From: a virus
Taxonomy: Duplodnaviria; Heunggongvirae; Uroviricota; Caudoviricetes
Virus record (IMG/VR): IMGVR_UViG_2695420565_000003
DNA length: 27,343 bases
Direction: 5' to 3' (one strand)
Shown: positions 5,630 to 8,527 of the stretch, piece after piece
Layout: each line of letters starts with the position of its first letter
How positions within the stretch are numbered: position 1 is the stretch's first letter
The notes under the pieces: generated by a model
Databases searched by the model: none
What the model saw: only the letters and a program-made list of their open reading frames with translations
What the model was told of the DNA's origin: nothing
Translations under genes and position numbers: made by a program

Positions 5630-7639
5630 ATGCTTAAATTTCGCCGCGATCTTAACGGTTACGGTGGAGTTATTAACGAAGGGCATAACGATCAATACGA
5701 ATTTGAAATTGCTTTCTCCAGTGAACAGCCGTATCAGCGCCAATTCTGGGATGAGCAAAATCAAGAGATGGTGGTATTAGATGAAATTCTGGTACATACC
5801 CCGGAAGCGGTTGATCTGTCTCGTCTGAATAATAACGCTCCGTTGCTGTTCAATCATAATTTCGATAATCACATTGGTGTCGTTTGTAACGCTCGAATCG
5901 ATGCGGATAACGTAGGTCGTGCTCTGGTTAAATTCTCTAAGCATGGCACTTTGGCTAATGATATTCGCAATAAAGTCATTGAAGGTACGATGGAAAAAAT
6001 TTCTGTCGGTTATGACATTAAAGAATATCACATCGACTACACCAAAGGACAATTGATTGTTACTAAGTGGGCACCCTATGAACTCTCATTTGTCACCGTT
6101 CCCGCAGACGATACGGTCGGTTTAAATCGCTCTCTAAATACTATCACAGTTAATTTGGAGGCTAAACGCGATATGACTAAAGAACAAATCGAAGAAATCA
6201 AAGAAGAACAAGAATCCGCTCAGGTTGAAGAAACTCCGGTAGAAGAAAATAAAGAATCGGAAGTAGAAGAAACTCAAGAGCGCCAAGTTGAAGAGAATAA
6301 AGAAGATGAAAATCTCGAAGACGGAAAAGACGCTGAACATCCTGAAAGTGTTGATGATGATAGTTCAACTGTTCGGGAAACAGAAGAAGTAAAAGAAGAA
6401 CGTGAAGCTGCTCCGGTTGAAGAAGAAAAAATCGAAGAAGTGGCTGAACGTTCCGAAGAAGACGAATTAGAAATTCGCGAGATCGCTCGCGAACTTCTAA
6501 TTGACGACGAAGAATTGAAACGCGCATTGGCAATTAAAGACATGACGCCGGAAGCATTCCGCACTAAGGCACTAAATAATCTCGTCAATGCTCAACGTAA
6601 TAACGAACAACAAATTAAGGACTCTAAAATGGAAAAAACTTTTGACCTGAACAACGTAATTCGCTCTCTGGTAGATGGTGAAGCTCTGGGTGCTAACGAA
6701 GCCGAGTTTTCTGCAATGGCTGCTACTGCAACTATGCAGCGTGGTCGTGCTGCTCGTGGTGGCTCTGTATTCGTTCCGGCTGCTGCTATGCGTGCTGCTG
6801 CTGCTGGTAACACCAAAGCTACTCTGACTGCTGTTACTGATGAAAAACTGCTGACTGAATCCTACATCGAAATGCTGCTTCCTGCTTCGTGTCTGGGTCG
6901 TCTGGGCGTGACCGTCCTGTCTGGTCTGAATAGCCCGATCGCTGTTCCGAAAATGACTGCTTCTAGCGTTGAAGCCTTTGGTTTTGTTGATGAAAATGGT
7001 GCTGCCCCCGAGTCACATGCGGAATTTTCGAACGTGAAAATGGCTCCGAAAACTTTTGCTGGTGGCAACCCGATCAGCCGTCAATCTCTGAAAACTGTTC
7101 CTAATATCGCTACCCTGATCACTGATCACATTAACAAAGCTGTTCGCATCAAACTGGAACAACTGATTCTGTCTGATAAAGAAAATGCTCGTGGTCCGGC
7201 TGGTCTGGTTAAACAACTGGTAGACGCTAGCCGCGTGACTAAGAAAACCGCTTTCAGCTACAAAGACCTGTTGAAAGAGATTGCCGCATTGACCGACGCT
7301 GGCGTTCCTGCTCAGGCGATCAAGTTCGCTATGAGTGGTGCAACTGCTGCTGAACTGGAATCTACCCCGAAATCTGATCGTGGTGACGCTCAAGGCTTCA
7401 TTATGGAAAACGGCAAAATTGCTGGTTATGAAGTAGTTACTTCTGGCGTTATTCCGGCAGATACGATCGTTCTGGGCGATTTCAGCGGCATTATCGTTGG
7501 GGAATGGGGAGGTCTTGAGCTAGATCTGGACGATTCAACGTACCGTGCACAGTCTGCGATCGTGCCTCGTGTATGGCTGGATTTGGACTACGTTGTAGCA
7601 CAGCCGGAAGCTCTGAAAGTTCTCCAGATTGGCGAATGA
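5630..7639 (+). CDS. Fused prohead protease (HK97/S78-type) + acidic scaffold/delta region + major capsid protein
   Basis: The N-terminal ~170 aa carry HK97-protease-like motifs ('LLFNHNFDNHIGVV', 'KISVGYDI', 'YELSFVTVPADDT'). A highly acidic E/K-rich coiled-coil segment follows, then a ~330-aa capsid-like C-terminus. It is one uninterrupted frame. Stop is TGA. Confidence 0.85.
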   Translation: MLKFRRDLNGYGGVINEGHNDQYEFEIAFSSEQPYQRQFWDEQNQEMVVLDEILVHTPEAVDLSRLNNNAPLLFNHNFDNHIGVVCNARIDADNVGRALVKFSKHGTLANDIRNKVIEGTMEKISVGYDIKEYHIDYTKGQLIVTKWAPYELSFVTVPADDTVGLNRSLNTITVNLEAKRDMTKEQIEEIKEEQESAQVEETPVEENKESEVEETQERQVEENKEDENLEDGKDAEHPESVDDDSSTVRETEEVKEEREAAPVEEEKIEEVAERSEEDELEIREIARELLIDDEELKRALAIKDMTPEAFRTKALNNLVNAQRNNEQQIKDSKMEKTFDLNNVIRSLVDGEALGANEAEFSAMAATATMQRGRAARGGSVFVPAAAMRAAAAGNTKATLTAVTDEKLLTESYIEMLLPASCLGRLGVTVLSGLNSPIAVPKMTASSVEAFGFVDENGAAPESHAEFSNVKMAPKTFAGGNPISRQSLKTVPNIATLITDHINKAVRIKLEQLILSDKENARGPAGLVKQLVDASRVTKKTAFSYKDLLKEIAALTDAGVPAQAIKFAMSGATAAELESTPKSDRGDAQGFIMENGKIAGYEVVTSGVIPADTIVLGDFSGIIVGEWGGLELDLDDSTYRAQSAIVPRVWLDLDYVVAQPEALKVLQIGE

Positions 7640-7768
7640 ACTAACGTAGAACCATCTGAACCTTCCCCCGATTTGGGGGAAGAAAATCTGATTCCTGAGC
7701 CGGAAGAAGAATCCCAGACGGTTAAGGCGAAAGCCACAGCTAAAAAACAGCGTAAAACTAAAGAATAA
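7640..7768 (+). other. In-frame 42-codon extension after the capsid TGA (candidate read-through peptide), ending in TAA
   Basis: The peptide 'TNVEPSEPSPDLGEENLIPEPEEESQTVKAKATAKKQRKTKE' continues the capsid frame. It is paralogous to the extension after the 13125..13598 gene. Confidence 0.4.
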
Positions 7769-7774
7769 TAATTA

Positions 7775-7801
7775 GCCCTGCCTAACGGTGGGGCTTTTTT
7801 G
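7775..7801 (+). terminator. Rho-independent terminator after the capsid gene and its extension
   Basis: GCCCTGCC-TAAC-GGTGGGGC followed by TTTTTTG. Nearly identical to the terminator at 13731-13758. Confidence 0.7.
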
Positions 7802-7830
7802 TATGTAAATACTCCATAAAGGGGGTAACT

Positions 7831-8121
7831 ATGTTCAAATTATCAGAATCACAATTATCAAGAATGTTCCGAAGTGCTCCTGTATTTTCGGTGGAAGGTG
7901 GTAAATCAATTCGTGCTTATCATGAAATTACTACTACCGACGAACAAGGGGTAATGACAGAGACAGAATTTTTATTTTGTCGTGAGGGAGACTTAAAGCA
8001 GGGTGATATTGTCATTGTAGAAAATCAGCGTTTCAAAGTTCAATACGTTAAGCGCAATGGTGACAATACAACTGATTGCTTTATCACTCTGGCAGGGGGT
8101 ACACATGCTCGCTACCGTTAA
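7831..8121 (+). CDS. Putative head-tail connector / head completion protein (96 aa)
   Basis: Small ORF directly after the capsid gene with RBS AAGGGGGTAACT. Assigned by position only. Confidence 0.45.
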   Translation: MFKLSESQLSRMFRSAPVFSVEGGKSIRAYHEITTTDEQGVMTETEFLFCREGDLKQGDIVIVENQRFKVQYVKRNGDNTTDCFITLAGGTHARYR

Positions 8122-8527
8122 TAACATGCCGAGACTGAAAATCAAACGCGCCTTGCAAGATATTATCGAACAAGATTTAGGTCTGGCTTTAAACGTAGAA
8201 CAAACTCAGCAAGGCTTTAGTGATGATGTGGTTTGTTGGATTATTGGCATGAATGAAACTTACACTAGGGTCCGTGGCGGTAATGCAATGCAAGCTGAAT
8301 GTGTTATCGAAATGCAATTATATTCTCAGATTCATGAAACCAAAATTCATGAGGGTATTTGCCAGATAATCCAGATTCAGCCGGATAACCCACGTTTTAA
8401 AGATTTGGGCTTCTCAATTTCAGATATCACTCCAGTAGCTTCTAATACCGATTATGACGATGATTCTAGTGATGGGGGTATCGTTGGGACACTTAGCCTT
8501 AAATTTTCTTATCTAGCGCGTTTTTAA
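8105..8527 (+). CDS. Putative neck / tail-completion protein (140 aa)
   Basis: The track ORF begins at 8057, but the ATG at 8105 is preceded by a GGGGG RBS and overlaps the upstream stop (ATGCTCGCTACCGTTAA). Assigned by position. Confidence 0.4.
   Translation: MLATVNNMPRLKIKRALQDIIEQDLGLALNVEQTQQGFSDDVVCWIIGMNETYTRVRGGNAMQAECVIEMQLYSQIHETKIHEGICQIIQIQPDNPRFKDLGFSISDITPVASNTDYDDDSSDGGIVGTLSLKFSYLARF

Follow-up and report, generated by a model that had tools for sequence, protein, structure and literature searches.

Organization of the capsid and tail tube genes

The window, that is, the whole 27,343-nucleotide stretch of DNA analysed here, is an E. coli prophage and comes from an uncharacterised E. 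coli prophage family. All features described below lie on the + strand, and positions are those of the whole window. A gene encoding a prohead protease-major capsid fusion was found at 5630-7636 (669 codons; ORF including the stop 5630-7639), and its product gave Pfam matches to Peptidase_S78 (in the 1e-10 range) and Phage_capsid (1.5e-24). The capsid part matched the major capsid protein of roseophage R4C (8GTA, E=2e-23); the position of the capsid C-terminus is not stated in the R4C capsid paper.

The capsid gene ends in TGA (7637-7639), a candidate leaky stop whose next base is A (context UGA-ACU), and frame 0 remains open for a further 42 codons (7640-7765). This extension reads TNVEPSEPSPDLGEENLIPEPEEESQTVKAKATAKKQRKTKE; its linker is acidic and rich in proline and leads into a basic tip (KAKATAKKQRKTKE). 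It is closed by the tandem stop TAATAA (7766-7771), which was present in 35 of 35 type-A capsid loci, and is followed by an intrinsic terminator at 7774-7801 with a 9-bp G+C-rich stem, a loop of 4 and a T run. An earlier note on this DNA had described the TGA, the 42 codons, the TAA and the terminator, and both its coordinates and its peptide proved exact.

The same arrangement was observed at the tail tube gene (13125-13595; 157 codons, ORF including the stop 13125-13598), which encodes a lambda-like TTP with weak Pfam matches, both just under the curated cut-offs (Phage_TTP_11, 28.2 bits with a cut-off of 28.4; Phage_TTP_12, 24.1 bits with a cut-off of 26.1). The gene ends in TGA (13596-13598) followed by ACU, and an in-frame extension of 41 codons (13599-13721; TNEELPLPEPEPLPEHEAVVIPEVEEVTAKATAKRGRKAKN) is closed by the stops TAA-TTT-TAA (13722-13730, the first TAA at 13722-13724). 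An intrinsic terminator with a 10-bp stem, a loop of 5 and a T run lies at 13729-13759. This is the second copy that had been reported at 13596-13724, and its TGA, 41 codons and TAA were recovered as described; variants of 36, 39 and 41 codons occur in the family, all in frame.

When the capsid and tube copies were aligned, the column identity was 78%, with 13 identical, 8 synonymous, 17 non-synonymous and 7 gapped codons, and the motifs common to both copies occurred exactly twice each in the window, with a chance expectation of about 0. The elements at 7774-7801 and 13729-13759 both have the G+C-rich hairpin and T run of an intrinsic (Rho-independent) terminator, and the tandem stops of the extension lie 2-6 nt upstream of the terminator, resembling an ordinary gene end. 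Nothing was called by PGAP in the capsid and tube extension segments.

Conservation of the stop codon and its context

Among the 28 ORFs of the window, 24 end in TAA, 4 in TGA and none in TAG, as had been claimed. TAA closes 22 of the 24 ORFs of the structural block, in which TGA is found at the capsid and tube genes only. The comparative set was assembled from 35 relatives identified by capsid homology and from extra loci identified by motif, giving 107 related-locus module instances (44 distinct sequences), many of which are related by descent, so that counts are not counts of independent events. In all 107 of these instances the TGA is followed by A, and positions +4 to +6 after the UGA are ACU or AAU. 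The codon before the TGA varies across instances (GAA, GAG, GAC, GAT, GGA, GGT, GCT and TCT).

One tube allele carries no extension, and in 13 of 13 of its loci the gene ends in TAA with a terminator directly 3'. The TGA stop is associated with the presence of the extension, and because this allele does without it, the extension is dispensable for the tube protein.

Of the three stops, TGA is the one that leaks most in E. coli, with Trp inserted and published rates of 0.7-6% at hot spots. The earlier note had described UGA followed by A as a leaky context in enterobacteria, which fits the Qbeta-labelled record NC_001890, where UGA-ACU is the coat-gene stop (UAC-UGA-ACU) and the A1 read-through protein is closed by UAG-UAA. 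The natural E. coli RF2 (B-type allele) terminates far better at UGA, UGAA included, than the K-12 allele.

Reading frame and codon usage of the extension

Nine extension lengths were observed, namely 84, 99, 126, 129, 132 and 135 nt after capsid genes and 108, 117 and 123 nt after tube genes; all of them (28-45 codons) are multiples of three, which implies at least eight indel events. The adjoining terminator loop has 1- and 2-nt indels. Frame 0 is open in 36 of 36 distinct extension sequences, and frames +1 and +2 contain 1-7 stops and meet stops within a few codons of the TGA. Relatives with indels or frame changes in this segment had been named beforehand as evidence against read-through; in the 35 relatives and the motif loci, no frame change, in-frame stop or loss of the TGA was found despite the at least eight indels.

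An open frame of such length is common by chance, and since 7-25% of dinucleotide shuffles were stop-free, significance is drawn from the comparative and codon-usage data and not from the open frame alone. Measured against the phage's own codon usage, the log-likelihood ratio per codon of the extension was 0.18-0.42 in frame 0, between -0.6 and -0.9 in frame +1, and between -0.7 and -1.6 in frame +2. The real genes of the phage gave 0.36±0.17 in frame and -0.73 and -1.28 out of frame. Only 0-1 of 3,000 dinucleotide shuffles reached the observed frame-0 ratio, likewise among the stop-free shuffles, and the 95th percentile of an antisense control was 0.13.

A separate small gene with its own internal start codon, needing no read-through, was considered, and in a Caudoviricetes metagenome-assembled genome a gene caller did call MGEENLIPPQEEESQTVKAKATAKKVGRPPKAK, starting at the TTG of 'DLG'. 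This TTG has no Shine-Dalgarno sequence upstream (CCUUCCCCCGAU) and is TCG in two loci (L088 and L103); neither the 28-codon capsid variant nor any tube copy has it. None of the other potential start codons is conserved and the frame is kept right back to the TGA, and we consider a separate gene very improbable. The AUG overlapping the stop at A-UGA opens merely a mini-ORF of 2-7 codons in most variants.

Constraint at the amino acid level is weak, because pooled pN/pS was 0.74 in the extension, compared with 0.28-0.29 for the flanking genes (capsid gene, 0.28), and the variable sites numbered 12, 17 and 17 at the three codon positions. Among the tube copies, synonymous changes were clearly enriched in frame 0, at 12 of 35, the other two frames giving 4 of 32 and 3 of 32; among the capsid copies the enrichment was weak (17 of 63, with 15 of 62 and 10 of 59 elsewhere). 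With this pN/pS, the earlier argument that synonymous differences indicate selection on this frame is a weak one.

The extensions (28-45 residues) are of low complexity, rich in Pro, Glu, Lys and Ala, with no aromatic residue in most variants and a single Phe in one tube-type extension; this is not the composition or size of an Ig-like, FN3 or Big_2 domain (about 80-100 residues). No sense-codon fusion of the extension was found among database proteins, a profile search with the extension was also negative, and the 120 best capsid homologues were all 655-673 aa long.

With these data a relic was considered, in which a nonsense mutation cut off an ancestral longer C-terminus, the codons have not yet decayed, and any read-through is functionless noise. 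The weak amino acid constraint would suit such a history, as would the tube allele that dispenses with the extension and the observation that no relative has a sense codon at the stop position. Against this, the sequences have diverged (pS 0.19 in the extension) and gained or lost codons in at least eight indels, yet not one frame break or stop has appeared in three gene contexts. TGA has never become TAA, though this is one transition away and is the usual stop of the genome, and a truncating mutation would be needed in two capsid alleles and the tube gene, whether it arose or spread there. A relic is, in our view, quite improbable.

Distribution of the module and exchange between loci

Of the 5,426 complete E. 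coli genomes searched, 54 carry the module, lysogens such as E. coli 266917_2 (CP026723) and PD23 being examples; it was found in 0 of 50,697 phage records, and in no isolated phage. Among the phage records, megablast with the capsid region gave no match, blastn with the module gave as its sole match a 39-nt terminator-like hit in Serratia phage 4S, and tblastn with both extension peptides gave no match, for which low-complexity masking is a possible reason. The nearest phage record, DCP80, has a capsid that is 43% identical and no in-frame extension. A scan of genome contigs with the capsid protein recovered no relative, and a terminator-pattern scan of viral contigs was uninformative, returning mostly unrelated phages that share a similar generic terminator. 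When metagenomes were scanned for the core motif, chance matches accounted for 117 of the 120 hits listed, and the other three were true modules, with the stop and the frame kept in all three.

A second capsid allele, whose protein is only 38% identical, also carries the module 3' of the gene and in frame. At this locus DNA homology with the window restarts at 7632, 5 nt before the TGA, and the extension is closed by TGATAA. In its C-terminal part, the type-B capsid module is similar to the tube module. Hosts of the module comprise two capsid alleles without DNA-level relation and several tube alleles, and the unit formed by the UGA, the tail, the tandem stop and the terminator behaves as a single module whose copies swap segments.

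Conserved core and predicted RNA structure

The most conserved part of the module is the core GCGAAAGCCACAGCTAAA (AKATAK; 7727-7744), which is common to the tube copy, where it is present as GCGAAAGCCACAGCAAAA (AKATAK; 13683-13700). Synonymous sites are conserved as well in the core GCGAAAGCCACAG, and this conservation points to nucleic-acid constraint or to gene conversion between copies, besides or instead of constraint on the peptide. Within the capsid core a mini-hairpin, GGC-GAAA-GCC, is predicted.

In the capsid extension, an 8-bp hairpin (CUUCCCCC-GAUUU-GGGGGAAG; 7662-7682) is predicted within a larger stem that begins 10 nt past the UGA (z = -3.7). The hairpin is invariant in the long capsid variants and absent from the short capsid variant and the tube copies. 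A stem 10 nt past the UGA was predicted in three module types (z = -2.9 to -4.5) and is lacking in the 36-codon tube variant (z = +0.7). No structure that might stimulate read-through is thus universal among the module types, and the hairpin was set aside as a general stimulator.

Since hairpins follow the UGA in three module types, decoding of the codon by a dedicated system was considered, which could be insertion of selenocysteine, a suppressor tRNA of the phage or a variant genetic code. The hairpins are, however, non-homologous, differing in sequence and position, one variant has none, and no Rfam match was obtained for the module. The window, 34 related loci and one complete prophage yielded no tRNA with anticodon UCA, and no in-frame TGA is read as sense in, or needed by, the other genes (ORFs of the window). 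On these grounds SECIS elements, a suppressor tRNA and an alternative code were ruled out, and dedicated decoding is scarcely credible.

Much of the structural evidence could be read in another way, as an untranslated 3' UTR and terminator cassette in which about 165 nt after the stop are kept for an RNA or DNA function and the open frame is incidental. Such a segment might stabilise the mRNA or guide its processing, give rise to a small RNA from the 3' UTR, bind a protein, or act as a homology 'linker' for modular exchange between phages. The core GUUACGGCGAAAGCCACAGC with its predicted mini-hairpin is invariant at synonymous positions, and constraint on synonymous and non-synonymous sites is similar in the extension, as the pN/pS of 0.74 indicates. 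Predicted folds of the module are stabler than those of shuffles (z = -2.9 to -4.9), the mosaic joint falls exactly at the module start, and copies swap segments, as in the type-B capsid module.

An RNA or DNA element would nevertheless need neither lengths in multiples of three, nor a single stop-free frame, nor matching codon usage in that frame, and an invariant TGA in a TAA-using genome and terminal tandem stops would likewise be superfluous. The lack of an Rfam match also counts against it. The N-terminal half is very different in sequence between module types, yet its Pro/Glu-rich character and the IPE/IPV motif are kept. A purely untranslated cassette is thereby rendered unlikely, and an RNA element inside a translated extension could be compatible with both readings.

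Proposed UGA read-through of the capsid and tube genes

Read-through of the UGA is the reading we prefer, and it probably yields capsid and tube proteins with a C-terminal tail in sub-stoichiometric amounts. Each of the two genes would close with a weak stop, UGA followed by ACU or AAU, at which most ribosomes would terminate and a small fraction would put in an amino acid. As at other E. coli UGA codons, this residue would most likely be Trp, inserted via near-cognate tRNA-Trp, giving the junctions VLQIGE-W-TNVEPSEPSPDLGEENLIPEPEEESQTVK in the capsid and ...QQIFTAG-W-TNEELPLPEPEPLPEHEAVVIPEVEEVTAK in the tube protein. Ribosomes that read through would translate a further 28-45 codons and be halted by the tandem stops just 5' of the intrinsic terminator. 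A minority of the capsid and tube subunits would then bear a flexible tail, in which an acidic Pro/Glu-rich linker precedes the basic tip K[KR]x[GSQE]R[KP]xK. We infer the occurrence of read-through, its rate and the inserted amino acid from these features.

As a whole, the earlier interpretation is partly supported. The upkeep of frame 0 in the relatives, the gene-like codon usage in that frame and the stop context speak for it. It had called the read-through programmed; no sign of enhancement over the basal level was observed, and wild-type RF2 terminates efficiently at UGA. Attenuation, in which a ribosome reading through would mask the terminator stem, was also considered and was rejected by reasoning, as its effect would be quantitatively negligible at percent-level read-through.

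By analogy with T7 10B and the C-terminal domain of lambda gpV, the tail may be placed on the outside of the head and tail of the virion. One guess at its function, a speculative one, is weak electrostatic adhesion to anionic surface polymers.

Comparison with known recoding systems

The A1 protein of Qbeta, to which the extended capsid protein had been likened, is the product of a similar arrangement, since there the coat gene is closed by UGA (UGA-ACU in NC_001890), an in-frame extension and tandem stops follow, and the host is E. coli. The expected product here would likewise be a minority C-terminally extended coat protein, which makes up about 5% in Qbeta. Qbeta, however, is a levivirus with an ssRNA genome, and its coat protein is folded differently; the A1 extension is 196 residues long (record coordinates) and is required for the formation of infectious particles. 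The module described here belongs to a tailed dsDNA prophage, encodes a low-complexity tail of 28-45 residues instead of a domain, is also found on the tube gene, where it is dispensable, and has a terminator 3'. The analogy therefore holds for the mechanism only.

The capsid protein of T7 and T3 has the HK97 fold. In these coliphages it is made in two forms (10A and 10B), as is proposed here for the capsid protein, and the second form gains a short C-terminal extension because the 3' end of the gene is recoded. The 10B extension of T7 is not an Ig-like domain. It arises by -1 ribosomal frameshifting into another frame and, T7 being a podovirus, has no tube counterpart.

Capsid and/or major tail genes with a C-terminally extended second product are also known from the Listeria phages PSA, A118 and A500 (Cps, Tsh), Lactobacillus phage A2 and SPP1 (gp17.1*), and in the Listeria phages and A2 both of these genes are recoded near their 3' termini. 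Here, too, the capsid and tube genes both have a genetic arrangement from which two products with different C-termini could be made. In those phages, which infect Gram-positive hosts, the extended product results from +1 or -1 frameshifting at slippery sites, whereas the extension described here lies in frame 0, not in a -1 or +1 frame reached from a slippery site. Many frameshift extensions in phages are Ig-like domains, that of A2 included. In the portions of the published accounts covered here, the two extensions of one such phage are not described as copies of one cassette.

Closer in mechanism are nudL and pheL, where in-frame UGA read-through by a near-cognate tRNA gives short C-terminal extensions. 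The weak RF2 allele of K-12 (Thr246) is held responsible for these as a side effect, the products being below detection with wild-type (B-type) RF2, and no conserved extension has been reported for them, in contrast to the extension and TGA conserved here across divergent alleles.

In tailed phages, frameshifting is the only form of recoding known from the 3' ends of capsid and tail genes, and reviews list nothing else there, in agreement with the earlier remark that a read-through capsid protein would be unusual for a tailed dsDNA phage. Among phages, Qbeta is the known case of in-frame read-through of a stop codon, a process considered rare in bacteria. Tentatively, and with some doubt, we suggest that the module may be a portable UGA-gated tail cassette, composed of a leaky stop, a disordered tail, tandem stops and a terminator, which was moved by recombination between the 3' ends of virion genes and places a few copies of one peptide on the head and tail; no earlier case of conserved, functional read-through of a stop codon would then be known from tailed phages.

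If true, conserved UGA read-through of capsid and tube genes would be a new recoding mode for tailed phages. It would also offer a natural, tractable E. coli read-through signal that could be tried against wild-type RF2, and would reveal virion proteins that current annotation misses. The sharing of one cassette also shows how a C-terminal tail can pass between structural genes, and the cassette might serve as a natural low-copy display site.

Organization of the TGA-Extension Module

The window spans the structural module of a tailed phage. Its genes specify a large terminase of gpA type, a portal of lambda type, a fusion of prohead protease and major capsid protein, head-tail proteins, a long tail fibre partly resembling T4 gp34/gp38, a tail tube protein like that of lambda, the tape measure and the tip. 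The protease-capsid ORF (5630-7639) stops at TGA (7637-7639), and the same frame continues for 42 codons, reading TNVEPSEPSPDLGEENLIPEPEEESQTVKAKATAKKQRKTKE, up to a tandem stop TAATAA (7766-7771) and a strong intrinsic terminator (7774-7800). The tail tube ORF (13125-13598) also stops at TGA (13596-13598); 41 codons in frame come next, then TAA-TTT-TAA and a terminator near-identical to the capsid one. The two segments can be aligned end to end with 78% column identity (13 identical codons, 8 synonymous and 17 non-synonymous differences, 7 gapped), and the motifs common to them occur nowhere else in the window. The earlier note, which proposed programmed UGA read-through at the capsid gene end, had described both segments accurately in coordinates, reading frame and alignment. 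The conserved feature is real, and it is rather probable, judging from sequence, that it is a leaky-UGA cassette adding a C-terminal tail to capsid and tube proteins.

A 38-nt near-perfect palindrome (17 pairs) encoding ELEIREIARELLI was observed inside the capsid gene (6465-6502); it has no counterpart in 32 of 34 relatives and is therefore probably a coding accident.

Maintenance of the Reading Frame in Related Prophages

A first set of loci, collected by capsid homology without use of the motif, comprised the window, 33 IMG/VR prophage loci (capsid identity 88-100%) and one locus from an E. coli genome. In all 35, the stop is TGA with A as the next base, the frame then stays open for 28, 42, 43, 44 or 45 codons, and TAATAA ends it. 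A second set, obtained by scanning for the core motif, added one more tube allele and a second capsid allele. The latter is again a fusion of protease and capsid, 685-691 aa long and only 38% identical to that of the window, and carries the same TGA, extension and terminator; its extension has 33, 42 or 44 codons and ends in TAATAA or TGATAA. Pooled, the sets came to 107 instances, many of them related by descent, which represent 44 different modules and 36 different extensions at the sequence level.

The stop was TGA and the next base A in 107/107 instances. After capsid genes the extension measured 84, 99, 126, 129, 132 or 135 nt, and after tube genes 108, 117 or 123 nt; every length is divisible by three, and frame 0 was uninterrupted throughout, with 1-7 stops in frames +1 and +2. 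An open frame of such length is unremarkable alone, 7-25% of the dinucleotide shuffles of the segment being stop-free. The extension alignment implies at least 8 indel events, and the terminator loop a few bases downstream, which serves as an internal control, varies by one and two nucleotides. Frame changes in relatives, set beforehand as evidence against read-through, were absent from the 107 instances despite these indels; with indels in multiples of three and frame 0 unbroken, read-through therefore withstood this comparison. The main rival explanation, an untranslated but conserved cassette of 3' UTR and terminator, leaves both the indel pattern and the single open frame unexplained.

Coding Potential and Substitution Pattern

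Codon usage was scored with 20 window genes against a mononucleotide background (log2 LR per codon). Real gene windows gave 0.36 ± 0.17 (mean ± sd) in frame 0, -0.73 ± 0.29 in frame +1 and -1.28 ± 0.47 in frame +2, and the nine extension length classes gave 0.18 to 0.42, -0.62 to -0.92, and -0.71 to -1.61, respectively. The observed frame-0 score was matched by no dinucleotide shuffle out of 3,000, or by a single one in the case of the short capsid variant; stop-free shuffles alone gave the same outcome, and the 95th percentile of antisense gene windows, best of three frames, was 0.13. In the frame of the upstream gene, codon usage in the segment thus shows the phase specificity of translated sequence, a result that an untranslated cassette also leaves unexplained.

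Codon alignments of the 35 loci gave pS and pN of 0.277 and 0.077 for the last 300 capsid codons (pN/pS ratio 0.28), 0.190 and 0.141 for the extension (ratio 0.74), and 0.158 and 0.045 for the next gene downstream (ratio 0.29). When changes were counted along minimum spanning trees, synonymous changes made up 12/35 in frame 0 of the tube copies versus 4/32 and 3/32 in the other frames, and 17/63 in frame 0 of the capsid copies versus 15/62 and 10/59. The earlier note had taken synonymous differences as selection on the frame; the synonymous fraction is indeed highest in frame 0, clearly so in the tube copies only, but with an extension ratio of 0.74 the signal is weaker than was assumed. In the core GCGAAAGCCACAG, synonymous sites are invariant and variation is mostly non-synonymous, a pattern that suggests added nucleotide-level constraint or gene conversion between copies. 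Module exchange between capsid and tube genes is visible, as the C-terminal part of the second capsid allele's module matches the tube module. The weak amino-acid constraint and the conservation of the core at the nucleotide level count against read-through, and the latter is accounted for by a 3' UTR cassette. The two readings would be reconciled if the translated extension contained an RNA element.

Stop Codon and Its Context

The 28 ORFs of the window end in TAA (24), TGA (4) or TAG (0), bearing out the rarity of TGA and absence of TAG noted earlier, and within the structural block TGA is found at the capsid and tube genes only. About one third of related prophages carry an extension-less tube allele (58-61% identical), which ends in TAA in 13/13 loci with a terminator 9-10 nt downstream, indicating that TGA accompanies the extension and TAA its absence. 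TGA to TAA is a single transition, and zero cases were found despite a pS of ~0.2. Neither this association nor the tandem stops are explained by a 3' UTR cassette. No relative with a sense codon in place of the stop was found among the 120 best database capsid homologues or in a profile search with the extension, which counts against read-through.

The stop context was UGA-ACU in 25 and UGA-AAU in 9 of 34 distinct contexts. Engelberg-Kulka reportedly showed in 1981 that normal tRNA-Trp suppresses UGA more readily when an A comes next. In E. coli reporter assays, TGA was the leakiest stop, with Trp inserted and hot spots of 0.7-6% read-through. A point against read-through here is that wild-type RF2 ends translation at UGA(A) efficiently and that other E. 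coli read-through products vanish in its presence. The RefSeq record NC_001890, labelled Qbeta, has UAC-UGA-ACU at the coat stop and an A1 read-through protein that is annotated at 5% and ends in UAG-UAA; its UGA-ACU hexamer and tandem-stop arrangement are identical to those of the module.

In most variants, the base before TGA creates an overlapping AUG, GUG or UUG (A-UGA; window 7637-7652 and 13596-13611), which opens a mini-ORF only, such as AUG-AAC-UAA.

Other Routes to Expression of the Extension

No conserved start codon was found inside the extension across module variants. A gene-caller protein from a Caudoviricetes metagenome-assembled genome (P0123) starts at a TTG inside the extension; this start was rejected, as no Shine-Dalgarno sequence precedes it, some loci have TCG instead, and neither the short capsid variant nor the tube variants contain it. 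With the other two frames closed, frameshifting is not required and not possible. A tRNA with anticodon UCA was found neither in the window nor in 34 related loci and one full prophage, and no other gene in the window requires TGA as sense. In many related loci (L003-L039, and 28146-28236 of the E. coli 266917_2 locus L230), ARAGORN called a minus-strand tRNA of 91 nt within an ORF homologous to window 8057-8527, with no call in the window. With its strand, coding location and variable anticodon (ttg, ttc, ttt), this call is probably spurious, arising from coding sequence, and was rejected as a UGA suppressor.

The module had no Rfam match. A stem starting 10 nt after UGA is predicted in three module types with unlike sequences (z = -3.7, -4.5 and -2.9), and none in the 36-codon tube variant (z = +0.7), indicating that a stimulatory hairpin or SECIS is not a defining part. 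A 3' UTR cassette would account for such folds.

Proposed Mechanism and Comparison with Known Systems

Under the read-through reading, most ribosomes would terminate at UGA by RF2, and a minority would decode it, probably with tRNA-Trp, adding 28-45 residues up to the tandem stops. In the encoded tail, an acidic linker rich in proline (net charge ~-9 for the capsid copy of the window) is combined with a basic tip (~+6) of the pattern K[KR]x[GSQE]R[KP]xK; some variants have the tip KKVGRPPKAK, similar to an AT-hook core. Aromatic residues are absent from the tail, except for a single Phe in one tube type, and it is therefore probably disordered. The extensions of T7 10B are surface-exposed, and the C-terminus of lambda gpV carries an external Ig-like domain; the window's tube protein is presumably the counterpart of the gpV tube domain. 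By this analogy, the tail would lie on the outer face of both head and phage tail. As for function, our best guess is that the tail would adhere weakly, by electrostatic attraction, to anionic polymers on surfaces, as proposed for Ig-like decorations; the extension is itself too short to be one. It is not essential for the tube, since one tube allele lacks it.

The mechanism proposed here from sequence would be like that of Qbeta A1, namely UGA read-through. The biological logic is like that of T7/T3, Listeria phages PSA, A118 and A500, Lactobacillus phage A2 and SPP1, in which frameshifting yields an additional version of major capsid and major tail proteins with a longer C-terminus; the module stands outside this class because its extension is in frame 0. 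Reviews give Qbeta A1 alone for phages and B. subtilis SacB alone for bacteria as read-through examples, and describe bacterial read-through as rare relative to frameshifting. No case in tailed phages was found in the open-access literature. If true, the module would be a C-terminal read-through tail on tailed-phage capsid and tube genes, an in-frame counterpart to the known frameshift extensions.

In an unrelated metagenomic phage, a 68-aa protein (P0125; L351 5551-5757) directly after a gpE-like major capsid gene ends in EAKATAKRGRKAQREGN and has 11 residues (AKATAKRGRKA) in common with the tube extension, nearly every codon being different. The rough chance expectation is ~0.1 matches of this kind in the database; the match could be chance, or a common capsid-associated basic tail.

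Occurrence and Mosaic Structure

No near match to the window was found among 50,697 phage records, the closest capsid there being that of Escherichia phage DCP80 (43% identical). Between the capsid stop (TAA) and terminator of DCP80 (7790-7900), there is an unannotated 28-codon ATG-initiated ORF in another frame, MERAISPMSLGAEALDAAPVKKSKSASG, also with a basic stretch at its end. The window matches E. coli prophages, with the capsid region in 55 of 5,426 complete genomes and the module in 54, at 75 places, chromosomal every time; the RefSeq annotation is blank between the capsid stop and the next gene. In strain 266917_2 (CP026723, 237.2-271.9 kb), the element is ~34.7 kb, interrupts hicB and encodes a large serine recombinase at one end. 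Its non-structural genes span only ~8 kb, with no obvious replication or lysogeny module in the annotation, and it may be a minimal or defective prophage.

Between the window and a prophage with the second capsid allele (L041), DNA homology is lost over the portal and capsid genes, save a few 46-81-nt matches, and restarts at window 7632, 5 nt upstream of the capsid TGA, continuing to 14952 (7.3 kb) at 86%, a sharp mosaic joint at the stop codon. The cassette thus lies in the conserved block that comes after the capsid gene, and another capsid gene has been joined to it, ending at the cassette's TGA. On the reverse strand of L041 (~13435), the terminator sequence recurs in a third copy, behind a further gene that has no extension, indicating that the cassette's terminator is also used alone.
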